Positions 3,196 through 49,086 of a stretch of DNA of 52,651 bases are shown here, piece after piece (the stretch's first letter is position 1; every line of letters begins with the position of its first letter). The position numbers were made by a program, and so were the translations under genes. The notes under the pieces are model-generated. The model searched no databases, was not told where the DNA came from, and saw nothing but the letters and a program-made list of their open reading frames with translations. The stretch covers positions 1-52,651 of IMG/VR virus record IMGVR_UViG_3300021599_002177. One strand, given 5' to 3'. This DNA is from a virus (Duplodnaviria > Caudoviricetes).

Positions 3196-3589
3196 GGTTC
3201 TCTAGGTAGCGAACGTGAGTCCTGTGTCTATGACAATTTGAGCAGACAATCTCACACTTGGCTACCTCTTCTTTAACAATCTCTAAACTAACCACCTTGT
3301 TGGAGTATTGAGATATATTAAAACGCTTCTTGCCTCGAACATGGTCAAAGTCCATAATCCAATAAGGATAGGTGGAGCCACAGTCGGCGCAAGGAGTCTT
3401 GCTTTTTAAATCTTGTAGGTAGTCTGCTATCTCTTTCTTGTGTCTTCTGCGTCTGCTGTTTGTCTTTTCAATCTGACCCTCACCAAGGTGATATGAGACA
3501 GTGCCCTTTGAGCAACTGAGGGCTTTGGATATCTCGTTATAGGAGAAGCCTTCAGCGCTTAGACGAAGGATTTCATCCTTGTGCTTCAT
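3149..3589 (-). CDS. HTH + HNH endonuclease
   Basis: N-terminal HTH (FSYNEISKALSCSKGTVSYH); PCADC...DFDH...KCEIVCSNCHRHRT. Start moved to MKHK because the track start overlaps the tRNA. Confidence 0.85.
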   Translation of the reverse strand: MKHKDEILRLSAEGFSYNEISKALSCSKGTVSYHLGEGQIEKTNSRRRRHKKEIADYLQDLKSKTPCADCGSTYPYWIMDFDHVRGKKRFNISQYSNKVVSLEIVKEEVAKCEIVCSNCHRHRTHVRYLENLDDVPSDDGKDLRRA

Positions 3590-3640
3590 AGAATACAAGT
3601 TTGACACAGGTTCAAAATGTCTATTTTGTTTGAACTTAAG

Positions 3641-3714
3641 TGCGCTATGCAAGACTCGAACTTGCGACGACCAAATTATGAGTTTGGGGCTCTAACCGAC
3701 TGAGCTAATAGCGC
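3641..3714 (-). tRNA. tRNA with CAT anticodon (elongator Met or Ile2); CCA not encoded
   Basis: GCGCTAT acceptor stem, AGCTCAGTCGGTTAGAGC D arm, CCAAA-CTCATAA-TTTGG anticodon arm, GTTCGAG T loop. Confidence 0.9.
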
Positions 3715-3715
3715 T

Positions 3716-3791
3716 TGGCGCCCTCGGCAGGGATCGAACCTGCGACGCAGACCTTAGAAGAGTCTCGCTCTATCCACTGAGCTACGAAGGC
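3716..3791 (-). tRNA. tRNA-Arg(TCT) with encoded CCA
   Basis: GCCTTCGTAGCTCAGTGGATAGAGCG-AGACT-CTTCTAA-GGTCT...GGTTCGATCCC...GGGCGCCA. Confidence 0.93.
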
Positions 3792-17331: not shown

Positions 17332-17682
17332 CTAAACACCTAGGAAATGCTTAACTAAAAAGGTAGCTGCTAAAAGCGTCCAGATAATGTTAAACCATAT
17401 AATAGTTGGTAGTGTCTTAATAGTTGCTGACCATATGAGCAAGATGCTTGTTATAAATGCAAAAATATAAAGCCACCATATTGATATACCAAAAAGTAGA
17501 CCAGGGATAATAATTAAAGCTTTTGTTGTAAAAGCAAGGAACTCGACTGTGTTTGGAATATTCCAATAAGCTTTTGTTTTCATTGTCTTTAATGCATTAA
17601 TCCATTGAAAATGCTTGCGAATATTCCCGTCAAAGACTTCTGCATTTGTGAAGAAGTTTGGGTCTTTATAGTTTTTTACCAT
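17332..17682 (-). CDS. Membrane protein (about 3 TM)
   Basis: Hydrophobic segments. Confidence 0.7.
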   Translation of the reverse strand: MVKNYKDPNFFTNAEVFDGNIRKHFQWINALKTMKTKAYWNIPNTVEFLAFTTKALIIIPGLLFGISIWWLYIFAFITSILLIWSATIKTLPTIIWFNIIWTLLAATFLVKHFLGV

Positions 17683-19256
17683 GTCTCAATCTCCCTCTTC
17701 ATGTATCTAACAAATTTCTTATGATCAACGCACCACTCTTCAACTACTTCATCTTGTACTTTTTTCATAGTATTAAAGTTGTACTCTAAGTCTGGAAAAG
17801 TTACATTGTAGGGGAGAGATTCTTTTGAATGTTTATCTATATTAAACTGACCAATTCCTAAAGCAATTTGATACCAGTTCTCTGCTTGCCAGAAAAGATC
17901 ACTAAAATCTGAAAAACAAAGCAGACGGTATTCTGATATATCAATAAGATCTTTTACTATCTCTGGGGCATTTTCTTTAGTGAACTTCTTCCAGAACTTT
18001 GTATCATCTCTTCCAGACATGTAGTGAAAGTAGATAAAAGCTAGTACATCTTCATTTAACATGCGGAACTTCTTATTAAAATCTTGAACTATTCTTTCGT
18101 CTATAGTGTGCAATGTTTCTGGTTTGGTAAGTACAAATGAAAGAGTAATGATTGACATCCAAATAGAAGTAGCCTCTAAAGGTTCTACAAATCCAGAACA
18201 AAGTCCTACGCTAATGACATTGTTGACCCAAGGTGTTTCGTAGTATCCAGGTTCAAAATTTATTACTCTAGGTACTTCAACCTTAGTTCCAAAATACTCT
18301 TCTGCTTCCTTCTGAGCTTCTTGTGAATTTATTAATGTGGAGTCAAAGACATAACCACAGCCGTAACGTTCTTGTAGAGGGATCTTCCAGATCCACCCAT
18401 ACTTCATAGCTATTGCTTCTGTGTGAGGTGGGATTGCTTCCTCTTCCATAGGAAGGAAGAAAGGAATTGCAGAGTTAACTGGTAGTTTATCTTTGTATGA
18501 GATCCACTTTGATTCAAACTTTTTAGGAAAGAATTTGTTGAATCCAGAGCAATCAAAGACAAAATCTGTTTCAATCACTGTTCCATCTTTTAGAACTAAA
18601 GTTTTTACATCTTTATTCTTATCTTGAGTAAAATCTTCAACAATCCCTTCTACAAGAGTAATCCCTCTTTCTATAGCTATAGCTTTTAGAGATCTTGCTA
18701 GACGCACTGCATCAAAGTGAAGAGCATAGTTAGAAATCTTTTCAAACTGCGCCACTGGATTTTCGCTTGATAAATCTTGTTTTCTTTTGTCGTACATAAA
18801 AGAAACTTTATTTTCTTTTGAAAGCTTTGCATGAAGATCATATTCTCTCTGATCTACTCCAAGATACGAGCCAGTCACATAAATTGACGGTACATCTTGT
18901 AAATATCTAGGCTCTTGTTGGTAGCCTTGAGTTGCAACATTTCCAAATGGTTTAAAAGAGTGATGGTAGAAATCATCGCTACCTTTGTTATTCCAGTTTG
19001 TGAATTTGATTGAAGTCTTTAGCGTTGCTCCTGCTTCTTTTAAGAAAGTAGATACTGGTATGTTTAGAATCTCTAGCAAGTCAACAAAATGAGGGGTAGA
19101 GCCTTCTCCAGCTCCTACAATGCCAATCTCTTCAGACTCTATAAGAGTAATCTTTTTTGTTGGCATTATGGTGTTTATATAAAGAGCAGCTAACCAACCT
19201 GCAGTTCCACCACCTAAAACACACACATTCTCTACAGAGCGAAGATTAGTTGTCAT
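17676..19256 (-). CDS. Flavin-dependent tryptophan halogenase family protein
   Basis: GGGTAGW, GAGEGS, DCSGF, WIWKIP (WxWxIP), GFVEPLEATSI. Confidence 0.9.
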   Translation of the reverse strand: MTTNLRSVENVCVLGGGTAGWLAALYINTIMPTKKITLIESEEIGIVGAGEGSTPHFVDLLEILNIPVSTFLKEAGATLKTSIKFTNWNNKGSDDFYHHSFKPFGNVATQGYQQEPRYLQDVPSIYVTGSYLGVDQREYDLHAKLSKENKVSFMYDKRKQDLSSENPVAQFEKISNYALHFDAVRLARSLKAIAIERGITLVEGIVEDFTQDKNKDVKTLVLKDGTVIETDFVFDCSGFNKFFPKKFESKWISYKDKLPVNSAIPFFLPMEEEAIPPHTEAIAMKYGWIWKIPLQERYGCGYVFDSTLINSQEAQKEAEEYFGTKVEVPRVINFEPGYYETPWVNNVISVGLCSGFVEPLEATSIWMSIITLSFVLTKPETLHTIDERIVQDFNKKFRMLNEDVLAFIYFHYMSGRDDTKFWKKFTKENAPEIVKDLIDISEYRLLCFSDFSDLFWQAENWYQIALGIGQFNIDKHSKESLPYNVTFPDLEYNFNTMKKVQDEVVEEWCVDHKKFVRYMKREIETW

Positions 19257-21402: not shown

Positions 21403-23445
21403 TTATGAATTTGATGTAATAAGTTTAATCTCGCAAGCATCTGTAGTGCAGTAAGCCTCGCCGATAGCATCTGCAGCAAGACCAGCATACACGCCAGAGA
21501 AGTCAATTGGGAACAACTTCATTGTATATTCCTCATACTCTTCTTTTGTAATCTGTGTGTATGGCATTTGAGGATATGTAAAGTTTCCAGATGGAAGGAA
21601 TGAGACAGTCTTTAGCTGGCCATCATGCATATGCAAAACAGTTCCAACATGCTGACCTTCCTTCTCTGGATCAAATGAAATAGTTACAGATACAGAGTTA
21701 TCAGACCAGTAGCGCTGTGCAGTTACTGCAAGTGCCATCTTCTCAAAGATAGTTACATCTTTCTCTGCACGCTCTGCCATTGACTCGATTGGGAAAAAGA
21801 CAACAGAAGTTGTGTCTGGAGATTCTGATGCTGGCTCAATTCTGTAATTAGCAAGCTTGAAGAGTGGAAGCATTGGATCTGAGTTAGCAAAGCGAATAGC
21901 ACGATTGAAGTACTTTCCACCTGGAGTCCAGTGAACTCCTGGAGATTCACCTGCAAGAATTGAAACGGTTCCTGATGGCTTAACGGTTGTGGTTTTGATT
22001 GACTCACGAATGCCTAGCCACTCTGAATAAGTTGTGTCGTAACCCTTTACAACTCCATAGCCTTGATTCATCCACTCTTTAAGAACTGGAAGTCCAATGC
22101 GATCTGCGAAGTTTGCAACACCAGAAACTGAGGTTCCAATTCGACGATTGCGTTGCATGATTGCGTTGGTCTCTTCCCAGTGGGTGGGAAGAAGTGTGAC
22201 AGTCTTTGCATAGAGATAAGCAAACTTAAGTGTGCGCTTGAAATCTTCCATATCATCATGACGATTTAGATATGTTTCAACAAGAGTACACATTTCATAT
22301 GACTCGAGTGATTGTTCAGCGCAAGGGTTGTAACCCATGATGCGATGGTCTTTGTTATTAGGTGGATCGATAAGGCGACCATACTTGCGTGATAGGTCAA
22401 GCCAAACAACGCCTGGTTCACCATTGAGTGCAATACCACTAACAATTCCTGATAGGTCTTGTCCAACTTCTGCTGCAACAGAGTTGTTAGACATCCAACC
22501 CCAACCTGGTGCATCTGGATCGTAAGAGTTGCGCTCTGGGAATACTTCTGCGTTCTTTAGATTAAGGAATGTTTCATCGCCTAATCTTCCGATAAGGAGT
22601 TCAGCAGAGCGACGAACATTGCCAGAAACAACGCAAACGCCAATGAGATTACCAATATCGGCGATATCAGTACGAGTGACTTTTTCATTTTCACGTCCAT
22701 TAAATAACTTTCTAATGTAGTTGTGTAATTTGATAAGTGGATCTGGACCTGCAGCAGTTCCACCAAAAATTTTAATTGGTGCACCAGCTGGACGAACAAG
22801 TGAGTAATCAAATTCAAATGTTGGTTGATCTGGCTTCAAGTATGCATTGATAAGTTGTGCAGTTGTGTTGACCCAACCTTCACGAGAATCTTCAACAACA
22901 ACAGTTACAACTTCATCCTTTGGCTTATAGATTGTGAAATCTTTATCTGCACCAAGGTCATCAAATCCAACGCCAACACCAAGCATTGATGCTTCCATTA
23001 AGAAAGCAAATGGTTTTGCTGGATCGTTCTTTGTCATCTCTCGTGTTGAAACGAAAGCGCAGTTTTGTAATGCTGCAGAGTTTTTCTGCTCGTTAACTAG
23101 TGGTGTTCCCATAACCCAAAGTCCACGTCCTGGCGGAGTCCACTTCAAATTAAATAAACGGTCAAATGCTTCTTTTGCAGAAGCTGCTGCACGAGTATCA
23201 GACCAAGGTAAACGATTAGTTTTGCAGTGATCTTTTTGAATTGAATACATGCCATTGATTACTCGCTCGCATACTTCAACCCAAGTCTCTTTAGTTCCAT
23301 CCTCTTTTTTACGAGAGTATGTACGAAGAAAAGTAATTTCTCCTACAGAGTTTCCACCTGCATCTCTATAACCAAAAGGAGCTTTCTTATCCTTGTAGGT
23401 TGCTAAGAAGTCTTCAGACAACTTAAAAGAAAAAGTAAAAGACAT
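21403..23445 (-). CDS. nrdJ: Class II (adenosylcobalamin) ribonucleotide reductase
   Basis: PPGRGLW, NCAF, GNVRRSA, NPCAEQ, TTVKPSGTVS, C-terminal CTTDAC; no intein apparent. Confidence 0.95.
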   Translation of the reverse strand: MSFTFSFKLSEDFLATYKDKKAPFGYRDAGGNSVGEITFLRTYSRKKEDGTKETWVEVCERVINGMYSIQKDHCKTNRLPWSDTRAAASAKEAFDRLFNLKWTPPGRGLWVMGTPLVNEQKNSAALQNCAFVSTREMTKNDPAKPFAFLMEASMLGVGVGFDDLGADKDFTIYKPKDEVVTVVVEDSREGWVNTTAQLINAYLKPDQPTFEFDYSLVRPAGAPIKIFGGTAAGPDPLIKLHNYIRKLFNGRENEKVTRTDIADIGNLIGVCVVSGNVRRSAELLIGRLGDETFLNLKNAEVFPERNSYDPDAPGWGWMSNNSVAAEVGQDLSGIVSGIALNGEPGVVWLDLSRKYGRLIDPPNNKDHRIMGYNPCAEQSLESYEMCTLVETYLNRHDDMEDFKRTLKFAYLYAKTVTLLPTHWEETNAIMQRNRRIGTSVSGVANFADRIGLPVLKEWMNQGYGVVKGYDTTYSEWLGIRESIKTTTVKPSGTVSILAGESPGVHWTPGGKYFNRAIRFANSDPMLPLFKLANYRIEPASESPDTTSVVFFPIESMAERAEKDVTIFEKMALAVTAQRYWSDNSVSVTISFDPEKEGQHVGTVLHMHDGQLKTVSFLPSGNFTYPQMPYTQITKEEYEEYTMKLFPIDFSGVYAGLAADAIGEAYCTTDACEIKLITSNS

Positions 23446-30362: not shown

Positions 30363-30767
30363 ATGGGTCAATACCATGTACTCGTTAACTACGATAAGAA
30401 AGAAGTTGTTACACCACACGAACTCGGCTTGGGTCTCAAGCAATGGGAACACATTGGATTTGAAGGCGGCACGCTTGCAGATGCGCTGTACATCTTGACG
30501 ATGACCAGTCCAGCTCGAGGCGGCGGGGACCTACCTGAGACTGCAATTTCCGGGAGATGGGCTGGAGACCGTTGTTTCGTTTACGGTGACTACACCGAGG
30601 CAAGTGATTTGCCAGACGGTATGTACGAATCGCTTACAGGCAAACTCGAGAAGTTTGAGGAAATCGGCTCGCTCGTTGCAACGGAGATGGGAAAAGTTTT
30701 TGATTTCACGATGAGCGGCGAGGGATGGAAGCACCGCATTAAAAACGGAACGGGTGCTGAAGTCTAA
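30363..30767 (+). CDS. Conserved phage hypothetical
   Basis: MGQYH...N.DK.E...GLKQWE...GRWAGDR...GDY; own promoter TTGACA...TATAAT at 30287-30316. Confidence 0.75.
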   Translation: MGQYHVLVNYDKKEVVTPHELGLGLKQWEHIGFEGGTLADALYILTMTSPARGGGDLPETAISGRWAGDRCFVYGDYTEASDLPDGMYESLTGKLEKFEEIGSLVATEMGKVFDFTMSGEGWKHRIKNGTGAEV

Positions 30768-36670: not shown

Positions 36671-37138
36671 ATGCCAACGGCAGGGGAATATGAGATTGAG
36701 TTCTTTTGGCTTGACGGAAACACTCCTGACGGCGAGCATCAAGATAGTGTGTGGTGGGAGAACGGAGCGGTCTGCAAAGTTGGCTTGGGTGATTTCGAAG
36801 TAACAATTAATGTAGACGGTGTAACTAGGATTGAGGATAGAGAAACGGGTAGCACCTACACAAGCAGTAGCGAGTTCCCTAGCGAGATAAATAACGACAG
36901 AGCTTTATCGGAAGCGAGTTCTGGAAACTACCCACGCTTTGAGTGGCAAAACAATTCGTGGTTCGACATTTACACATCTGACGGAGAACACTTAGACATG
37001 GTTAATCACGAGGCAGACGAAGCCTTTGACCAAGCGTGTGAGTATTTGATTGAGCAGTTCGTAAATGTTTGTATGATTGAAAATAATCAAATGCCACAAG
37101 TTGAGGGCAGACAAGTCGTGGTTCTTGATTTAGATTAG
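36671..37138 (+). CDS. Acidic hypothetical
   Basis: 155-aa ORF, NNSWF motif. Confidence 0.7.
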   Translation: MPTAGEYEIEFFWLDGNTPDGEHQDSVWWENGAVCKVGLGDFEVTINVDGVTRIEDRETGSTYTSSSEFPSEINNDRALSEASSGNYPRFEWQNNSWFDIYTSDGEHLDMVNHEADEAFDQACEYLIEQFVNVCMIENNQMPQVEGRQVVVLDLD

Positions 37139-38944: not shown

Positions 38945-39115
38945 ACAATCCCTAGTCGGCAGAACCCCTTGCGAAAGCAGGGGGTTTTGTTTTTCCCCCC
39001 TACTATGTATAAAGGGGGAAAAAAGAAAACGGCACGAGGTTGTAGAAAAAGTCAGATAGGCTTGGTAGAATAGAGTTGTTAGCAAGGGGCTAACGGCTAG
39101 GGAAAAGGAAAACAA

Positions 39116-39250
39116 ATGAAAGATGTATGGGCTTCATCAGTAAGCGCAGAAATGGCAAACGGCTTGACGAAAAAGGAACTAGAGCAGTTGGTAGAGGAAT
39201 TAGATGATGCGGTAATGCGTGTCTGCCTAGACTTTGGAATAGAGGGGTAA
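39116..39250 (+). CDS. 44-aa hypothetical
   Basis: MKDVWASSV...ELDDAV; promoter and CTAGGGAAAAGG leader. Confidence 0.65.
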   Translation: MKDVWASSVSAEMANGLTKKELEQLVEELDDAVMRVCLDFGIEG

Positions 39251-39254
39251 ATAA

Positions 39255-39569
39255 ATGAGCGCAGAGAAGTATTACTCAACGGGTAGAGATTTAACTATCT
39301 CAATAGTAGAAATCAAGGCGAGCAGTATGGAAGAAGCTGAAGCGGTTATGCAGAGGTTTATAGATAAAATCGCCGAGGTAATGAAGGACGAGGTTCGCTG
39401 GGATGAAGCGGATTGGAGTATTCAGGAAAACACTATGAACGCAGAAGGAACAGGTTATTGGGTAACGGACGAGGGCGTTCCAGATTACTACGAGATGAGT
39501 GATGTGGAAGCAGACGCAGATACTCTTGCGAGCGCAGGACACGGAACGGACGAGGACTACGGGGGATAA
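39255..39569 (+). CDS. Acidic hypothetical
   Basis: C-terminal DAD.LASAGHGTDEDYG motif. Confidence 0.7.
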   Translation: MSAEKYYSTGRDLTISIVEIKASSMEEAEAVMQRFIDKIAEVMKDEVRWDEADWSIQENTMNAEGTGYWVTDEGVPDYYEMSDVEADADTLASAGHGTDEDYGG

Positions 39570-39763
39570 TTTTTCCCGGAGAAGCCCCGCTACTTTTGTA
39601 GTGGGGTTTCTTTTTTTCTCCCTACTATGTAAGAAGGGGAAAAATAAAAATAGTTTTGCAGGTAGTCATTACCCGGAAATGAAAACTTTTGGTTGAGTAT
39701 AGATTTTTCAACAACGCTATGATAAAATTATCTTGTTCATACAAACTAGGGAAAGGCAAGACA

Positions 39764-40144
39764 ATGGACACAATGGAACAGCACACGGTTGAATTAACTA
39801 GCGACTGCACTTGCACTAACGAGGACGGCACGCCTAGTAATGATTGTTTTGATTGCTGGGACGACTCAGTATGGTTGTTCAAGGACTTGATGAACACTTG
39901 GCGCAAGACGGTTGGCGTGGAGTGGGACACCGTAAGAGTTACTGGCAAAGGTATGGGTTGGCAACGCACTAGCGGTGAAGCGGTAATACCGTTCGATGAA
40001 GTCTTAGAGTTATTAAAGATAAACGGGGACTTTACTCTACGGTTCAAGCGTGAAGGCAAAGTCCTTACGGCAACACGGTCAAGCCACGATGAGCCTACTG
40101 GCGCAGGATTTACTTTCACCCTTATTAAAGGAGAGGAAGCATAA
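39764..40144 (+). CDS. Hypothetical
   Basis: Start moved to MDTM after CTAGGGAAAGG; GW...SG, SHDEPTG. Confidence 0.7.
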   Translation: MDTMEQHTVELTSDCTCTNEDGTPSNDCFDCWDDSVWLFKDLMNTWRKTVGVEWDTVRVTGKGMGWQRTSGEAVIPFDEVLELLKINGDFTLRFKREGKVLTATRSSHDEPTGAGFTFTLIKGEEA

Positions 40145-40296
40145 TGGCTTGCGAAGATTTCCCTTGTTGCGGACACGAGATGGGCGACTGCGAAGGACAC
40201 CTATACGGCTCGGACGAGTCAATTAAGCGGATGGTGATTACACGGATGAGAAGTGAAAACTTTGACCCTTACTACGATGACTGGCTAGAGAAATAG
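40144..40296 (+). CDS. 50-aa CEDFPCCGH peptide
   Basis: MACEDFPCCGHEMGDC...; TAATG coupling. Confidence 0.6.
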   Translation: MACEDFPCCGHEMGDCEGHLYGSDESIKRMVITRMRSENFDPYYDDWLEK

Positions 40297-40305
40297 GAGA
40301 GAGAA

Positions 40306-40449
40306 ATGGGAAAAGATTATTTATCTATCTTGATGGAGTGGAAGCCTGATGGAAGTTTCACGGAAGAAGATTTATGGGATGCTATCGCTGAAGCGGAAGG
40401 AGTAGATGTAAGCGAGATAAGCGATAGGGATTTAACGGAGTTTATTTAA
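40306..40449 (+). CDS. 47-aa acidic peptide
   Basis: AGGAG RBS; EEDLWDAIAEAEG. Confidence 0.6.
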   Translation: MGKDYLSILMEWKPDGSFTEEDLWDAIAEAEGVDVSEISDRDLTEFI

Positions 40450-40612
40450 TTTTCCCCCATAGTAAGTAGAAGCCCCTGCCAAACGGTGGGGGTTTCTCTT
40501 TGCTACATAAGAAGGGGGAAAAACAAATAAACTTGAAAAGGGCAGGGAAGTAGAGTATTATTTTCTTAACGGCAAATCATTAGGGATAAGCCGATTGTTC
40601 TAGGGAGAACAA

Positions 40613-40993
40613 ATGCAAAACTCAGACAAGATGACGGTGGGAATTACTTTCACCGTTGGCGAGTTGTGGGAAGCCGTCTTTGGTTCAGACGGCGCAGGAA
40701 TGGTTCACTGGTCTACCGAAATCAGAAATGAAAACGGCGAGGACATTGATTTATGGACTACCGATGAAAACGGTGAGTCAGTAACAAATCCACAAAACTT
40801 CCGAGTTTATGAAGATGAAGAAGAGAAGTGGCACGATGTATCTCTCGAACAACTTCGTGTTGGTTTCGAGAAGGCTCTTGTTGAAAACTCAACTCATTGC
40901 GGTGGCTATGCGTTGAAGCTTGATGACTACGACGCTTGCTTCGGCGACATCGTTATTCAGTATGCGGTATTCGGAGAACTTGTCTACGGATAA
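40613..40993 (+). CDS. Conserved phage hypothetical
   Basis: C-terminal DA..GD..IQYAVFGELVYG. Confidence 0.75.
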   Translation: MQNSDKMTVGITFTVGELWEAVFGSDGAGMVHWSTEIRNENGEDIDLWTTDENGESVTNPQNFRVYEDEEEKWHDVSLEQLRVGFEKALVENSTHCGGYALKLDDYDACFGDIVIQYAVFGELVYG

Positions 40994-41154
40994 GCAAAAG
41001 TAGAGAAGCCCCTTGCTAAACGGCAAGGGGTTTCTTTTTTCTCCCTATCTATATATAAAGGGGGAAAATAAATAACGGCGTGGAGATATGGAGAAGTGCA
41101 GGAAGGTTTGGTAGAATTAATGCACCAGCAAGGGGCTGGTAAAGAAAGGGAATT

Positions 41155-41370
41155 ATGAGCACAAATTATGTTGGAGTATCTCATCCTTGCGACGAGTGCC
41201 GAGTAGAAGTAAGTTTTATTATCCCAACAATTGACTCATCAACAAAAACATCGGAAACACTCATTGACGATAAAGGGAATATTGAATACTGGAAAACAAT
41301 GAGTTGCGATGAGTGCGGAACAGTTAGCACTCACGCTGGTGTCTACCAATCAGAATGGATAGATGTTTAA
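41155..41370 (+). CDS. Small zinc-ribbon protein
   Basis: Two CDEC motifs. Confidence 0.65.
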   Translation: MSTNYVGVSHPCDECRVEVSFIIPTIDSSTKTSETLIDDKGNIEYWKTMSCDECGTVSTHAGVYQSEWIDV

Positions 41371-41529
41371 ACTTACATTGAGAAAAGCCCCGCTTCGGCG
41401 GGGTTTTTTTTCTTTCTCTATATAAGAAGGGGGAAAAATAAAAAAGGATCCAGGTGAAATAAAAAGTCAGGAAAGTATGTTAGACTTAATACACACTCGC
41501 TAAGGGAGCGAGAGAATAGGGAAACAAAA

Positions 41530-41838
41530 ATGGAACTACTAACGAAAGAACTTCGCAAGAAGTTGCCACCGCTTTACGCAAATGAAGAAGTGAAAGACCC
41601 AATGGTAATTGCTAAGTTTTTTGCGCTCGCAAGCAACTGGACTTGGTTTGCTATGGAGTTTGACGGAGAAGATTTATTCTTCGGAATGGTTCACGGCTTT
41701 GAGAAGGAGTTAGGTTACTTCAGCCTGAAAGAGTTACAGAGCCTGAAACTTTCAATGGGCGGAATCGAAATCCCTGCGGTTGAAAGAGATATCAACTGGA
41801 CACCCCGCCGACTCTCAGAACTCAAGGAATACGCCTAG
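41530..41838 (+). CDS. DUF2958 family protein
   Basis: LP.LY..E...DP....KFF....WTW...EFD....FFG.V.G.E.ELGYFSL.EL...ERD. Confidence 0.85.
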   Translation: MELLTKELRKKLPPLYANEEVKDPMVIAKFFALASNWTWFAMEFDGEDLFFGMVHGFEKELGYFSLKELQSLKLSMGGIEIPAVERDINWTPRRLSELKEYA

Positions 41839-42020
41839 AGTAAAACGAAAGAACCCCCGTCAAACGGCGGGGGTTTTTTTCTTTCTATATATAAAGGGGG
41901 AAAAAAGAAACACCGAGAATGTTATTGAAAAAAGCATGAAAGCAAAGTAGAATAATAACAACTTGGTAGGGGGAAGCCGTTGGTCACCTGAACGACTTGA
42001 ACTCTAGAGGGTCGGAAACA

Positions 42021-42245
42021 ATGCGGCTCCCTACTAAGCAACTAGGGAAAAAAGAATATCCAGAAATCGTTGTTCCGCTTGTAGGACAAGACGGCAACGC
42101 AGTCGCAATTATGGGACGAGTGGCAAACGCTATGCGTAAGTCAGGAGTCGCACAGGAAGAGATTAATCAGTATCTCGATGAAAGTATGTCGGGAGATTAC
42201 GATAATCTTCTTCGCACCGCTATCAAATGGGTAGCAACGGAGTAA
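42021..42245 (+). CDS. Conserved phage protein (start ambiguous)
   Basis: YP.I.V.LVG.DGNA.AIMGRV..AMR...SGDYD.LL; no ATG after the CTAGGGAAA at 42042. Confidence 0.65.
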   Translation: MRLPTKQLGKKEYPEIVVPLVGQDGNAVAIMGRVANAMRKSGVAQEEINQYLDESMSGDYDNLLRTAIKWVATE

Positions 42246-42333
42246 CTTCCCTTAGGAGAAAGCCCTTGTCGAAAACGGCAAGGGTTTTTTCTTGTCTATA
42301 TATAAAGGGGGAAAAAGAGAGTAGGATAGAAAC

Positions 42334-42642
42334 ATGGATAAGATAATGAATATTAAAAATGTAATGTTTATAGGTGATTATTTTTCAATGATAGTAAGTG
42401 TTGCCGTATCAGAAGATGATTTACAAAATGGAGAGACTTATGAGGACGCTTGTTTAAGAGCTGCGGGTAATCTTTTGAAAGGGCAGTATGGCTGGGATGT
42501 AGTCGCCGTTTCAAATCACATAGGCGTTCTTGATGAGGGAGACCCTAATTGTGAAACTTGTTATGGAGAGGGAAAAGTAAGAAGTGAAGTAAGCGGTCAG
42601 ATGAGAGAGCTGGAATGCCCCGATTGTTTTAATAAGCGTTGA
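42334..42642 (+). CDS. Hypothetical with DnaJ-type CxxCxGxG zinc finger
   Basis: CETCYGEG...CPDC; TAGGAT-N6-ATG. Confidence 0.65.
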   Translation: MDKIMNIKNVMFIGDYFSMIVSVAVSEDDLQNGETYEDACLRAAGNLLKGQYGWDVVAVSNHIGVLDEGDPNCETCYGEGKVRSEVSGQMRELECPDCFNKR

Positions 42643-42718
42643 TTTGAAAAAATGCAGGAAAGCGACTACAATCGGACTACAATTTAATACCGACACTAAC
42701 TAGGGAAAGGAAAGATAA

Positions 42719-42808
42719 ATGGCAACACTTCAAGAGAAGCTAGATGAAGCTTCAGAAGCTTGCGAAGTTATCTTGGCAGAATTGCTGGACGAAATAGAGA
42801 AAGACTAA
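42719..42808 (+). CDS. 29-aa acidic peptide
   Basis: MATLQEKLDEASEACEVILAELLDEIEKD; full promoter, RBS and terminator. Confidence 0.6.
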   Translation: MATLQEKLDEASEACEVILAELLDEIEKD

Positions 42809-42908
42809 ATCGTTCGAGAGAAGCCCCCGCCCCTGCGGGGGTTTTTCTTTTTCTATGTATGTAGGGGGAAAAAGTTTTTGCACCGAAGTTGTAATGCTAG
42901 AATAAGAG

Positions 42909-43013
42909 TCCAGGTAGTAGCGAGGACTTCCCTTCCTATCGCTCCCTGATGAGATAGGCTTCCCTGCCTATCGCACCTCACCCCTGCCTCCCTAGCGGGG
43001 GTGAAGTGTCCCT
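42909..43013 (+). ncRNA. Candidate triple-hairpin sRNA with UCCCU loops
   Basis: After TGCTAGAAT -10; no ORF; loops CTTCCCT, TTCCCT, CTCCCTA. Confidence 0.65.
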
Positions 43014-43072
43014 ATTGAAAATGTCAGATAGGTAATGTAGAATAAAGACAGTAGCTCGGAAGGGAGAAAGTT

Positions 43073-43309
43073 ATGAGTTATGAAGGAAGTATGAAAGGTT
43101 CGGGTATCTACTCCGAAGATGTAACACTTGAGGTTGAGTGTGATGAGTGCGGTAAGTCTTGGGAAGAAGATTTTATGACCGACGACTGGGGAAATGTATC
43201 CTCAGAAGTAAAGTGCGAGTGCGGTAATGCTTGGACTTTTGAAAAGGAACAAGAGGAAATGGGCGACCCTAATGCGCCTGATACCTTAGAAGAGTTATGG
43301 GGCGAATAG
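43073..43309 (+). CDS. Small acidic zinc-ribbon protein
   Basis: CDECG...CECG. Confidence 0.7.
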   Translation: MSYEGSMKGSGIYSEDVTLEVECDECGKSWEEDFMTDDWGNVSSEVKCECGNAWTFEKEQEEMGDPNAPDTLEELWGE

Positions 43310-43397
43310 ACCCGAAGCCCTCCACCGAAAGGTGGGGGGTTTTTCTATATAAGAAGGGGAAAAATCAGGAAGGTTGAGTGCGGTTATTCTTTAGAGT

Positions 43398-43643
43398 ATG
43401 GAAATAGTTCAGAAGGTATATCACTCAAATGGATCTAGTGCGCCGTTTATTGTTGCCATAGTTGATGACCCTGATGCCGGGGATACAAAACTTGTAATTA
43501 TGTTTGAAGATAATGAATACACCGCCGTTTTATCGTTAGACAGACTTATTGAAAATGAGGATATAGGAGACAGAAACTCTCATAGTGCCGATAAGTATGA
43601 GTATGCCTTGCGTGATGAACTTTGGAATGATTTTAACTACTAA
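43398..43643 (+). CDS. Hypothetical
   Basis: H.NG..APF motif; TATTCT-N7-ATG. Confidence 0.65.
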   Translation: MEIVQKVYHSNGSSAPFIVAIVDDPDAGDTKLVIMFEDNEYTAVLSLDRLIENEDIGDRNSHSADKYEYALRDELWNDFNY

Positions 43644-43657
43644 TTAAGGATTGAGCA

Positions 43658-44227
43658 ATGACCACAATAGCATCAGTGCAGGGTGATGGCTGGGCGGTTA
43701 TTGGTTATGACTCCAGAGTTTCAGAGGAAGAAGGTAGAACTTATATTCTGCCGAAAGACAATGGAAAAGTTTTTAAGAATGGTAACTACATAATTGGAGT
43801 AGCTGGTGATGTGCGGGCTATTAATTTATTGGCTCATGTTTTTAAGCCACCAGTTTGCACCATAAACACTTTAGGGGTAAAACTAAATAAGTTTATGACT
43901 GCCGTATTTATCCCAGAACTTAAGAAGTGTTTTGAGGAAGCCTCTTACTCAAAAGATGGCGACCACGAAAGTCAGATTATTGTTTTAGTTAATGGAACTA
44001 TCTATGAGATAGGTGAGGACTACTCTTGGTGCCACGATACCGTTGGGGCATACTCTATTGGTTCAGGTTCAGCCTATGCTCTAGGCGTTCTTAATGCCTT
44101 ATCAGAGGGAAAGAAAAGAACTCTCACTAACGCAAGGTCAGCTATCAAAACTGCGCTCGCCGTGTCTGCAAAGTTTGATAACAAAACTGCCGAACCTTTT
44201 TATCTTTTAACGCAATACCGAGATTAG
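43658..44227 (+). CDS. HslV/proteasome-beta-like Ntn peptidase, copy 2
   Basis: MTTIA...DSR...K...GVAGD...SIGSGS.YALG...D. Confidence 0.85.
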   Translation: MTTIASVQGDGWAVIGYDSRVSEEEGRTYILPKDNGKVFKNGNYIIGVAGDVRAINLLAHVFKPPVCTINTLGVKLNKFMTAVFIPELKKCFEEASYSKDGDHESQIIVLVNGTIYEIGEDYSWCHDTVGAYSIGSGSAYALGVLNALSEGKKRTLTNARSAIKTALAVSAKFDNKTAEPFYLLTQYRD

Positions 44228-44287
44228 TTTTTCCCCCCTTATACATAGACAAAAAAATAACCCCCGATTTCTCGGGGGCTACTTTCT

Positions 44288-44404
44288 TTAGCACTTTTCG
44301 CAAAGTATGTTGCGGTAATAATCTATTTGCCTAATTTGGAATTGCTCTCCGCACCGATAGCAATTTATCCAAATCATTACTTCACTTGCTTTTACTCTTG
44401 CCAC
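44288..44404 (-). CDS. 38-aa zinc-binding peptide
   Basis: MARVKAS...CYRC...CEKC; AAGGGAA RBS. Confidence 0.5.
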   Translation of the reverse strand: MARVKASEVMIWINCYRCGEQFQIRQIDYYRNILCEKC

Positions 44405-44606
44405 TTGAGTTCCCTTTCTCTTGGCTTGTATCTTAATTTTATCTTATGTGCCGTCAAAAGTGTGGGAACTTATAAGTTGGCGTGTTATTTATTTATTTTT
44501 TATTTTCCCCTTTATATGTAGAAAAAGTCAGGAAAGTCGTGTAGAATAAAGCCATACACACTCGCTAAGGGAAGCGAAGGTGAATAGGGATAAAGGGGTA
44601 ATTAAA

Positions 44607-45251
44607 TTGCCAAAGGAAAAAACAAAAGTATGTATTGGGTGTTTCTATCCTCTACCGCTTTCACAGTTTAATAAATACAACTGGGGCGTTGATGGAGTAA
44701 GAGCAAGATGTAAGAAGTGTTTCGCAATTCACCGCAAAGGTGGCCCGGCTCGCACCGCAAAGCGCAAGGAACTATTAGCAAAAGGATTACGCCCTTGCTC
44801 TGGTTGTAAAAGAAGCAAGCCTCTATCCTCTTTCCAAGAAAAAACATACGCAAATGGAAATGAAGGCTGGGAAGGTCAATGTAAGAGTTGCGTATCTAAG
44901 TCCTCAAAAGTTAAGAACGCGAACAGAAACAAAGATACAAGAGGTTTCGTGTTTGAGTATCTAAAGAAGCACCCTTGCGTGGATTGCGGTGAAACCAATG
45001 TATTAGCCCTAGAGTTTGACCATATTCACAGCAAGAAGTTTGATATTGGAAACGCACTAAATAGCAATAAAGGTATGAAATTAGTTAAGGCAGAAATTAA
45101 AAAGTGTGTTGTGCGTTGCTCTAGTTGCCACCGCATAAAGACTCACATAGAAAGAGATACTTGGAGATTTAATCTATCTTTACAAGACAAGGCTACAAGC
45201 CGTAAAATTAAGAACACAAAGCAATACAAAACTTTAATGAAGGCGGGGTGA
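44607..45251 (+). CDS. Zn-finger + HNH endonuclease
   Basis: Two CxxC...PLS.F...CKxC repeats; PCVDCG...LEFDH...KC.VRC..CHRIKT (same family as 3149-3589). Confidence 0.85.
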   Translation: MPKEKTKVCIGCFYPLPLSQFNKYNWGVDGVRARCKKCFAIHRKGGPARTAKRKELLAKGLRPCSGCKRSKPLSSFQEKTYANGNEGWEGQCKSCVSKSSKVKNANRNKDTRGFVFEYLKKHPCVDCGETNVLALEFDHIHSKKFDIGNALNSNKGMKLVKAEIKKCVVRCSSCHRIKTHIERDTWRFNLSLQDKATSRKIKNTKQYKTLMKAG

Positions 45252-45255
45252 TTAA

Positions 45256-45378
45256 ATGGGATATGTAGAAATCTTTCGCTTAGATGAGGAAGGTGCTGGC
45301 TGGGTAAATCTAGAGGAAGCCACACCTGCCGAACTCTCAAATCTAGAAAAAGGTTTAGCAGAGGAAGGCGCACTTTAA
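45256..45378 (+). CDS. 40-aa acidic peptide
   Basis: MGYVEIFRLDEEGAGWV... Confidence 0.55.
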   Translation: MGYVEIFRLDEEGAGWVNLEEATPAELSNLEKGLAEEGAL

Positions 45379-45466
45379 GAAAGGAAAGGGGGCGCTCGCA
45401 AGGGCGCTCTCTTTTCTCCCTATATAAGTAGGGGGAAAATAAAAAGAGAGAAAGGAAAATAAAGCT

Positions 45467-45661
45467 ATGAAGTTTCTACCTGATAGTGCGGTGCTTGGGA
45501 CACTAGGACACATTAAGAACGCCACAAGAAAGAAAAGAGGTAGTGCGGTTGGGTTGAGTATGGTTAGAGATAGACACGCTTATTACTACCCACGCAGAAC
45601 CACGCAGGAATTATTAGCCTTAGCAGGACACGCCCGAAAAGCAAATAAAGCAGGAAAGTAG
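45467..45661 (+). CDS. Small basic hypothetical
   Basis: AAAGGA RBS. Confidence 0.5.
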   Translation: MKFLPDSAVLGTLGHIKNATRKKRGSAVGLSMVRDRHAYYYPRRTTQELLALAGHARKANKAGK

Positions 45662-45727
45662 AAAAAAGCAGGGAAGTAGTGTAAAGTTCTACTAGTGGCT
45701 AAGGGAGCCACAGAAAGCAGGGACAAA

Positions 45728-45883
45728 GTGAAAACAGAAGCAAAGTTTATTAGGCGCAGAATTGCGGTTGCTCTTATTGCGCTCGCTCTTATTGCTTGGG
45801 CGTTTGACGCAACAACACCTGAACAATGCAAAGTTCCAGTTGAGCAGATGAATAGTTTTTGTAAGGACTTGCTCTACCCGTAA
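45728..45883 (+). CDS. Small membrane protein
   Basis: RRRIAVALIAL TM...TP.QC.V.VEQM..FC; GTG start after CAGGGA. Confidence 0.65.
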   Translation: MKTEAKFIRRRIAVALIALALIAWAFDATTPEQCKVPVEQMNSFCKDLLYP

Positions 45884-45918
45884 GGGTAGGGCAGGTCTCT
45901 ATATATAAAGGGGGAAAA

Positions 45919-46152
45919 ATGCCTAGACTTAGAAAACCAGAACCAATTATGTTAAATGATGATGAACTCTATGCGGTTATGCGAGCCACATTTCAACACC
46001 CTAAAGTTCGTAAATGGAAGCCGACAGGTTATGAACTAGAGTTATTAAAAGACGCTTACGAAAAAATCGCTACAGAGTATTACGCTCGTGCAGAAGAAGA
46101 GCAGCGCATTGACAATGAACTACAACTAATAAGAGCCGAATACGAGGGATAA
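45919..46152 (+). CDS. Hypothetical
   Basis: ORF starting right after a 21-bp box. Confidence 0.6.
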   Translation: MPRLRKPEPIMLNDDELYAVMRATFQHPKVRKWKPTGYELELLKDAYEKIATEYYARAEEEQRIDNELQLIRAEYEG

Positions 46153-48435: not shown

Positions 48436-48584
48436 TTGTTTTCTCCCTAGTGTGGTACTTGGTTTCCCACTACCGAAAGAATAGATTACTTTCCTGCACT
48501 TTGCAAGATTAAAGGGAAGCTTTTGTGCGGTGTGTCTTAGAAAAAGAAAAAGCCCCCCTTGGATAGGGGGGCTAATTCTTGCGG

Positions 48585-48946: not shown

Positions 48947-49086
48947 ATGACTAGTCATACTTTTTTAGGCTAATAGTCAGTAGGTTACTAGTCAGTAGGT
49001 TACTAGTCAGTAGGTTAGAGGGTAGTAGTTACTAGTCAGTAAGTTACTAGTCAGTAAGTTACTAGTGAGTAGTAGTTAGTAGTAAG
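48947..49086. repeat. Tandem array of 15-bp TTACTAGTCAGTARG units
   Basis: Exact units at 48985, 49000, 49029, 49044; degenerate at 48971, 49015, 49059; palindrome ATGACTAGTCAT at 48947. Confidence 0.9.

Follow-up and report, generated by a model that had tools for sequence, protein, structure and literature searches.

The RNA element

The window (the whole stretch of DNA analysed here, IMG/VR virus record IMGVR_UViG_3300021599_002177) is 52,651 bp long, with a completeness estimate of ~40%, and contains among a series of small genes an RNA element of three hairpins, which a covariance model (R1) places at 42904-43016 of the plus strand (121.3 bits, E = 1e-29). The predicted transcript is ~105-110 nt long. 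Public sequencing runs yielded no RNA data set for it in a listing, and three small lake metatranscriptomes of the same study, compared at 85% likeness, gave no matching record, a blank that speaks neither for nor against expression. The intrinsic terminator of the preceding mini-cassette (42816-42849; a 15-bp stem with 8 G-C pairs, then a T-tract) forms the upstream border of the slot; it is followed by a copy of a repeated box, TCTATGTATGTAGGGGGAAAAA (42852-42873; repeat families D1 and D9), and by an extended -10 element, TGCTAGAAT (42895-42903), which was read from the sequence and is designated P1, all on the plus strand. This anatomy had been described in an earlier examination of the letters alone (the sequence-only reading), and was found again at these positions.

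All three hairpins are given for the plus strand. Hairpin 1 (42911-42948) consists of an inner stem, 42919-42926 with 42934-42943, closed by the loop CTTCCCT (42927-42933), and of an outer stem CAGG/CCTG, 42911-42914 with 42945-42948. Hairpin 2 (42953-42972) reads GATAGGC-TTCCCT-GCCTATC, and directly abuts hairpin 3 (42973-43009), which has a 14-bp stem and the loop CTCCCTA at 42988-42994. Sequence and fold both reproduce the hairpins, loops and coordinates of the sequence-only reading, to which the outer stem of hairpin 1 is an addition. The plus strand folds with a minimum free energy of -47.6 kcal/mol (z = -4.2), a value equalled by none of 200 shuffles. The minus strand folds similarly well (-48.2 kcal/mol, z = -3.35), and the fold of a single sequence therefore leaves the strand undecided.

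The cluster of five TCCCT copies that had been pointed out is real and compact: they lie at 42929, 42943, 42961, 42989 and 43009 of the plus strand, within 85 nt, the plus strand of the window having 48 in total. When 2000 first-order Markov sequences of the window were simulated and searched for clusters within 90 nt on one strand, no more than four copies were ever found together (five in 0/2000).

Conservation, covariation and strand

A covariance model built from related phages had been proposed as a check. R1, built from 13 distinct sequences, matches with 95-128 bits each of the 23 related IMG/VR loci (L004-L026) whose sequence extends into the upstream DNA, and by BLAST and R1 together the RNA is in the same place in each of them. 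The search of IMG/VR with R1 covered 82 sources and returned 26 matches at E up to 1. A single copy is present per record in the window (G000) and in two complete relatives, G001 and G002.

In the alignment of the 13 distinct sequences, 97.0% of the 336 pairing cells are paired, compared to 43.8-55.2% when the partners are slid by one to three columns; this figure is flattered, since the structure was derived from the same sequences, and changes on both sides of a pair are the stronger evidence. RNAalifold returns three helices in which 10 of 26 pairs show compensatory changes. Two-sided changes in ten pairs were reached by one of 500 shuffles, and the covariation score of 0.346, against 0.171 in shuffles, by none of 500. 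Covariation is clearest in hairpin 2 (helix 4), where both sides have changed in five of seven pairs; three pairs of hairpin 3 (helix 5) have changed on both sides, and the outer pair of hairpin 1 has gone from A-U to G-C in 10 of the 13 sequences. MAFFT shifts the rows of the G002 group by one register in parts of hairpins 1 and 3, so that the counts for these two are conservative.

The same alignment favours the plus strand, as the sequence-only reading had proposed. Read as plus strand, 97.0% of the cells pair; read as minus strand, 84.2% would. Of the cells, 46 are G-U and three are A-C. The extended -10 element points the same way, the TGn and TAnnnT hexamer being found in 15/15 distinct aligned sequences. 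Transcription from P1 is inferred to start at about 42907-42911, a few bases before the first stem. A scan for -35/-10 consensus promoters does not include P1 among its calls because its -35 is poor, and P1 rests on the extended -10; the GGGGGAAAAA part of the box ends 24 nt upstream of the -10 hexamer, the usual place of a -35, and GGGG(G/T)AAAAAGTTTTTG is retained upstream of the RNA in near relatives. In the window the mini-cassette is placed between a 102-aa gene and the RNA; the aligned relatives lack it, and there the RNA promoter directly follows the homologue of the 102-aa gene.

A function at the level of DNA (as an insulator, as a terminator stack for read-through from upstream, or as a signal for replication or packaging), or a minus-strand CsrB-like sponge presenting ANGGA motifs, would suit an element that is placed between transcription units and whose minus strand folds as well as it does. 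On that strand, however, the 46 G-U cells become A-C mismatches, and the conserved -10 element is correctly spaced before the first stem of the plus strand. The promoter scan lists no minus-strand promoter facing the element, and in relatives it has neither a terminator before it nor a U-tract after it. We regard these explanations as extremely unlikely; strand and promoter speak against the sponge, which the sequence-only reading had held in reserve for a minus-strand transcript.

Two small open reading frames (ORFs) overlap the element, and neither is conserved. A 1-nt indel inside both sets the window apart from all 12 other aligned sequences, and the ORF that starts with TTG meets a stop after two codons in relatives; a small peptide gene was ruled out on these grounds. 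Covariation, the conserved extended -10 and the ORF-breaking indel together bear out the proposal of a stand-alone non-coding RNA gene, and we are confident that the element is a real plus-strand structured RNA gene. As judged from its covariation it is a new RNA family, which would belong to a kind already known (small RNAs, sRNAs, with C-rich loops that target Shine-Dalgarno (SD) sequences).

The invariant or nearly invariant parts of the element are the (T)TCCCT core of loop 1; GCTCCCYGWTGAG, located in the 3' arm of hairpin 1 and in the junction; CGCAC, where hairpin 2 meets hairpin 3; TCCCTAG of loop 3; and GGTG..GTGT. A search of IMG/VR with the pattern GCTCCCYGWTGAG..CGCAC gave 50 stretches, of which the 27 from additional contigs yielded no R1 match; the 12 of these 27 that were inspected have no hairpin layout and look like chance matches. 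A hammerhead-like CUGAUGAG together with a C/D-box UGAUGA was also considered and rejected, most relatives reading CCGUUGAG.

Loops and distant relatives

In the near family the conserved loops are UUCCCUU in hairpin 1, where the TCCCT core is conserved, and CUCCCUAG / CUCCCUA in hairpin 3, where TCCCTAG is invariant in all 13 sequences. Farther out, in loci L027 to L032, whose HslV-like protein is 52-62% identical to that of the window, a three-hairpin RNA occupies the same place. R1 finds it with weak matches of 15-24 bits, and a fold scan finds it as well. Three hairpins with CCC-containing loops are kept in L027, in L028-L031 and in L032, and CCCUU of loop 1 is kept in all distant relatives; C-rich loops are a trait of the whole family. 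The loops here are of the type CCCCUUUC(U): L027 has UCUCCCCCCUUUCUG and ACCCUU, L031 has CACCCCCCUUCG and CUUACCCUC, and L032 has ACCCCUUUCU and CACCCCCUUUCG, with loop 3 reading CCCCCUUUCG.

A MAFFT alignment of near and far members together was structurally inconsistent, and the single model R1 was therefore retained. The fold scan took in 33 chosen loci, in each of them the DNA that lies upstream of the HslV-like gene, and gave the layout in seven (L004, L017, L027, L028, L030, L031 and L032), all of which were already known or suspected carriers. It gave nothing convincing in 26 more distant loci chosen from L033-L082, nor in L170 and Actinomycetia phage DSL-LC01; the latter had no credible R1 match either.

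The 3' tail of 16S rRNA reads CCUCCUUUCU. From their letters, the loops of the distant relatives resemble this tail with the central U replaced by C. It might be argued that the RNA is a protein decoy, in which loops that mimic the tail, instead of pairing with mRNAs, titrate a host or phage factor that recognises it, for example a protein that binds or cleaves the 16S 3'-end or a defence nuclease. The likeness of UCUCCCCCCUUUCUG and ACCCCUUUCU to the tail, the several hairpin-loop copies per RNA and the strong conservation outside the loops are all consistent with such a role. The central U of CCUCC is, however, consistently C, which is a better fit to G-run sites in mRNA, and no candidate partner protein was identified; we consider a decoy very unlikely.

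Matching ribosome-binding sites

The sequence-only reading had listed genes of the surroundings with AGGGA before the start. All of the sites exist, at 39099, 39748, 40602, 41518, 42702 and 43061 on the plus strand and at 48444 and 48854 on the minus strand, the last having been given as 48853. Its contrast of AGGGA with AGGAG was overstated, because several of the sites (among them 43061, 40602 and 48444) are AGGGAG and contain the canonical GGAG core.

Genes were called by a simple codon-usage caller, which found 126 in G000, 178 in G001 and 175 in G002. AGGGA precedes the start of 14/52 genes within 10 kb of the RNA gene and 6/74 elsewhere in G000, 14/49 and 10/129 in G001, and 13/52 and 9/123 in G002 (odds ratios 4.2-4.8, p = 0.006 to 0.0009). 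For GGG the corresponding figures are 26/52 and 13/74, 28/49 and 26/129, and 28/52 and 30/123. G-run leaders (AGGGA, GGG) are thus 4-5 times commoner within 10 kb of the RNA gene in all three genomes, and their concentration in the surrounding small-gene region, which had been asserted for the window, is upheld. For canonical GGAG/GAGG there is no enrichment near the RNA gene in the same three genomes.

The heptamer CTAGGGA is the exact complement of the invariant loop 3. It occurs 14 times in the window, where 6.2 are expected, a number reached by one of 100 shuffles. Within 25 nt before called starts lie 4 of 14, 4 of 12 and 2 of 15 occurrences in the three genomes, against an expectation of 0.2-0.4; this is 10-20 times above random placement, and nearly all of these leaders are within 10 kb of the RNA gene. 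A fifth such leader in the window belongs to a 29-aa ORF at 42719 that the caller missed. The distant relatives have leaders of their own: in L032, where the loops are CCCCUUUC(G), those of the small genes read CGAAAGGGG or AAAAGGGGG, and in L027 they read AGAAAGGGG.

Predicted duplexes between loops and leaders are stronger for genes near the RNA (p = 2e-4 to 6e-6). Composition-matched shuffled loops performed at least as well in 2/200 cases for G001, 5/200 for G002, 2/200 for L027 and 0/200 for L032, and in L032 the loops pair better with the leaders than the anti-SD does (-12.0 vs -9.9 kcal/mol). For the gene immediately downstream, which encodes a 78-aa zinc-ribbon-like protein (43073-43309, plus strand; leader GGAAGGGAGAAAGTT before the ATG), the predicted duplex of the leader with the apex of hairpin 1 has -17.0 kcal/mol and ranks second among the 126 called genes of the window; on this modelling loop 1 might target the gene, in cis or in trans. 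The RNA family has a conserved seed that is complementary to the ribosome-binding sites of a target set, a feature expected of trans-acting SD-occluding sRNAs.

Proposed mode of action

We tentatively favour, at somewhat under an even chance and by analogy with known sRNAs, a trans-acting, SD-occluding RNA of the 6C/RsaE type that is encoded by the phage and acts on G-run SD sequences. The RNA would be transcribed from the plus strand under an extended -10 promoter of its own, within the region of small early genes, and would pair in trans, through its two conserved C-rich apical loops, with G-run SD regions (AAGGGA, CUAGGGA, GAAAGGGG), so that binding of the 30S subunit is blocked. If stable, it would accumulate, and early translation would be shut off or tuned. 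As G-run sites are concentrated in early genes of the phage, the early mRNAs would be the most economical set of targets; host mRNAs with G-rich SDs may be alternative or additional ones.

A bolder extension, which we think doubtful, is that SD flavour serves as a code. Early genes would have G-run SDs, and an anti-SD look-alike, in which the central U of CCUCC is C, would prefer these over GGAGG, so that host-like, late and leaderless messages are spared. The selectivity would come from pairing chemistry: UCCCU/CCCC can pair fully with AGGGA/GGGG and mismatches the A of GGAGG, while the ribosome could read both by G-U wobble.

A number of observations weigh against an SD-occluding RNA or against its selectivity. 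The three genomes are related, and the enrichments are therefore not independent trials; the counts also depend on our simple in-house gene caller. Duplexes of the anti-SD with the leaders are likewise stronger near the RNA, and the difference between loop and anti-SD reaches significance in one genome of three (p = 0.016 in G000, 0.12 in G001 and 0.26 in G002), which weakens the selectivity for AGGGA over canonical SDs that the sequence-only reading had advanced. In the near family the loops pair more weakly than the anti-SD (-7.0 vs -7.8 kcal/mol), and in the window 77 of 200 shuffled loops were at least as good as the real ones; the energy calculations do not yet bear out a selectivity by pairing chemistry. 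A matrix of sRNAs against leaders across phages gave no preference for cognate combinations, longer loops simply pairing better, and no predicted target recurs in the top 12 across the three genomes.

The RNA itself also offers some resistance. The strong conservation of GCTCCCYGWTGAG, CGCAC and GGTG..GTGT, outside the loops, would fit a contact with a protein or RNA polymerase as well. Loop 2 varies (CACTTG or CACTTA in L015-L018, CACTTG in the G002 group, TATTCCAAT in L094), as does the TCCCT of the 3' tail; the copy at 42943 lies within a stem, and most relatives have TCCCC there. Constraint therefore acts on two of the five copies, and of the multivalency that had been proposed, loops 1 and 3 remain: the RNA is bivalent rather than pentavalent. 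Finally, hairpin 3 is followed by TCCCTATTG / UCCCUAUUG and not by a U-tract, and it is absent from the terminator scan, whose criterion was a minimum of 5 T in 8; neighbouring cassettes, in contrast, do end in clear U-tracts. The corresponding tails of relatives contain 4-6 U in 9, as counted on the alignment. It is thus not assured that the transcript has a discrete 3' end, and this keeps two cis-acting readings alive.

The 3' end and the downstream genes

Immediately after hairpin 3 begins P2, the promoter of the next gene (43015-43043, plus strand; TTGAAA, 17 nt, TAGAAT, with 10/12 matches to consensus), and TTGnAA-N17-TAnnnT is retained in near relatives. TTGACA-type promoters follow the RNA in L028, L030 and L031; in L027 there is no obvious promoter between the RNA and the next gene. 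The order in the near family is 102-aa gene, RNA, 78-aa zinc-ribbon gene, 81-aa gene and HslV-like gene. What comes after the RNA is an unrelated 85-aa gene in the G002 group and, directly, the 81-aa gene in the distant groups. With such variable neighbours and a promoter directly after hairpin 3, the RNA behaves as a module of its own.

This bears on the first of the cis readings, in which transcripts from P1 run past hairpin 3 as a 5' leader and the loops work on the very transcript that contains them, through pairing with the GGAAGGGAG SD downstream, through altered mRNA stability or through attenuation, P2 giving an unregulated transcript with a short leader. The missing U-tract, the absence of hairpin 3 from the terminator scan, the rank of the 78-aa leader as second-best partner of the hairpin 1 apex and the situation in L027 would all be expected of such a leader. 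The RNA is nevertheless kept while the next gene changes (78-aa, 85-aa or 81-aa), a conserved -35/-10 promoter separates the two in L028, L030 and L031 as well as in the near family, and complementarity is weak in the G002 group, where the leader is AAGAGGGGT. We judge a cis-acting leader unlikely.

The second cis reading is an antiterminator like the put RNAs of phage HK022 (putL/putR), which are promoter-proximal paired hairpins of an early transcript, without a terminator of their own, located upstream of terminators. The hairpins would bind RNA polymerase and bring about read-through of downstream intrinsic terminators. The phage RNA is likewise promoter-proximal, starting within a few bases of its promoter, with adjacent hairpins and no terminator of its own; same-strand terminators lie downstream at 43313-43345 (read from the sequence) and at 44261-44278 (from the scan), and the sequences of junction and stems are conserved beyond the needs of pairing. 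It differs from put in its conserved C-rich loops and in the promoter that directly follows, and has no similarity in sequence or model to it or to any Rfam family. The loops are kept in distant relatives while the stems drift, suggesting that the loops are the working part, and to our knowledge put-type RNAs occur in lambdoid coliphages only. An antiterminator of this type appears distinctly unlikely.

Comparison with known RNA families

The Infernal/Rfam search suggested by the sequence-only reading produced no known family for the plus strand of the element. At the gathering threshold, Rfam 15 detects only two tRNAs in the window. At E up to 10, no plus-strand family falls on the element within 42700-43200 (501 nt); the minus-strand hits that overlap it are chance matches to NrrF (19.6 bits, gathering 60) and His_leader (14.7 bits, gathering 49), and a hit to RsmY (16.2 bits, gathering score 57) is off the element and corresponds to the upstream terminator. 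The elements of L027, L031 and L105 gave nothing with Rfam and that of L032 nothing credible, a minus-strand BSnc120 hit there (3521-3605, 21.4 bits, gathering 114) reaching ~20 bases into the element and reading as the upstream terminator.

The SD-occluding RNA that we favour has its closest counterpart in 6C RNA. [quoted passage not shown] As far as that part of the description goes, the phage RNA is alike in having two working C-rich loops against G-rich ribosome-binding sites, and the host phylum is probably the same. It differs in the number of loop C residues (six conserved in 6C; 3 in the near family and 5-6 in distant relatives), in its three hairpins, in a different junction layout and in being encoded by phages. 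The 6C model (RF01066; gathering 47 bits) has no match at E up to 10 in the five phage records G000-G004, and none on the element in the window, L027, L031, L032 or L105. Conversely, R1 at E up to 0.1 detects nothing in 151 Nanopelagicales genomes, nor in the one metagenome-assembled genome (MAG) mentioned below; this order was chosen as host from a single binned MAG contig and is a guess. On these 151 genomes, the RNA element is confined to phage contigs, unlike the chromosomal 6C gene of Actinobacteria. RF01066 at E up to 0.001 gave no match in 41 Nanopelagicales genomes, a weak blank, as the control genome was detected only below the cut-off.

In the Firmicutes, RsaE/RoxS, the UCCC-motif sRNAs of Staphylococcus aureus and RNAIII carry several unpaired UCCC/CCCC loop motifs that pair with Shine-Dalgarno sequences. 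The phage RNA shares such C-rich hairpin-loop motifs; these sRNAs are chromosomal, and, in the absence of an Rfam match, no homology is implied. The cuckoo RNAs of alphaproteobacteria are sRNAs that have several hairpins and, in the loops, conserved C-rich motifs resembling an anti-SD, and are similar to the phage RNA in both respects. They are, however, multi-copy and chromosomal and belong to another phylum, while the phage RNA is single-copy per genome and has no Rfam match.

Phage T4 inactivates its early mRNAs after the early phase through RegB, an endoribonuclease that cuts GGAG, and RegA, a translational repressor. A comparable shut-off of early messages through their SD or initiation regions is proposed here, with the difference that the agents of T4 are proteins and that of the present phage would, by this analogy, be RNA.

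Only a few small RNAs of phages are known, and those that we found come chiefly from coliphages and prophages. Our literature searches brought up no described actinobacteriophage sRNA with anti-SD-like loops, and Rfam 15 has no such family. From the sequence, the setting is new: large uncultured phages, whose hosts are abundant bacteria of lakes, with an early region in which the genes share a matching SD flavour. If an SD-occluding RNA is indeed made, phages have adopted the riboregulation by C-rich loops that is seen in 6C and RsaE, a variant of the ribosome-binding site can mark a temporal class of genes, and an RNA does the job that proteins do in T4, as an RNA-only counterpart of RegA/RegB. 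With two loops and a handful of leaders, the element is a small test object.

Neighbouring small genes

The 29-aa ORF (42719-42808; MATLQEKLDEAS...) has its own promoter (42644-42672) in addition to its terminator, and is probably, as read from the sequence, a real gene for an acidic micro-protein. A 30-aa look-alike, MRTLQEKLDAVA..., is present in the G002 group at another position (L017:2339-2431). The 81-aa gene (43398-43643) is the most constant partner of the RNA and of the HslV-like gene in all groups. With a TATTCT hexamer 7 nt upstream of the A of its start codon, an ATG that no SD-like run precedes, the gene may be expressed as a leaderless mRNA.

Phage and host

Hallmark phage genes of the window encode a portal protein, a virion protein, an HslV-like peptidase and an HNH endonuclease. 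Auxiliary genes encode a tryptophan-halogenase-like flavoenzyme (17676-19256; Pfam E = 4e-101) and a class II (B12-type) ribonucleotide reductase (21403-23445), and tRNA-Met(CAT) and tRNA-Arg(TCT) are located at 3640-3791. By its portal protein, the closest named phage is Actinomycetia phage DSL-LC01, which is metagenome-assembled (74% amino-acid identity), followed by large Microbacterium and Arthrobacter phages. The two complete IMG/VR relatives have terminal repeats and are 134,380 bp (G001) and 135,031 bp (G002) long. The RNA is probably carried by a large (~134 kb) freshwater phage of actinobacteria. A DNA search of 42000-44300 of the window against GenBank phages gave no match.

Among GTDB genomes, the HslV-like gene has a sole relative (40% identity), on L170 (JBMTBW010000020.1), a 15,280-bp contig that was binned into a Candidatus Nanopelagicaceae MAG and is probably itself a phage contig. 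This binning is a weak hint of a Nanopelagicaceae-type host lineage for the phage group.

Other repeated sequences

The box upstream of P1 is one of at least nine copies (38985-45919) of a ~21-bp sequence, CTATATATAAAGGGGGAAAAA, that follows most of the cassette terminators; copies are found at 39002, 39624, 41048, 41417, 41884, 42295, 42852, 45419 and 45898, among others. It also occurs in an inverted form, TTTTTCCCCC..TAyATGTAGA, and the two halves form a palindrome at 38985-39023. The G5A5 part of the box is ~42 nt before the -10 of ordinary cassette promoters, compared to 24 nt for the RNA promoter with its missing -35. Two copies, at 36671 and 45919, stand immediately before an ATG and would serve as SD. 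Judging from these positions, the box could be an activator or UP-like site, or part of a second promoter class.

Another motif, AATGACGAAAGG (variants ACGAGGGG and ACGAAACG), recurs before many start codons of this phage, 25 nt upstream of the starts at 30363, 31392, 32636, 36285, 37184, 38510 and 25746, and is also present in distant relatives, for instance at L027:30 and L027:1457. It may represent a shared translation-initiation module or a regulatory site. Between divergent genes at 48956-49072 there are 15-bp direct repeats (TAGTCAGTAGGTTAC-like), with at least five overlapping members of a 43-nt family, an arrangement that looks like iterons or an operator array.

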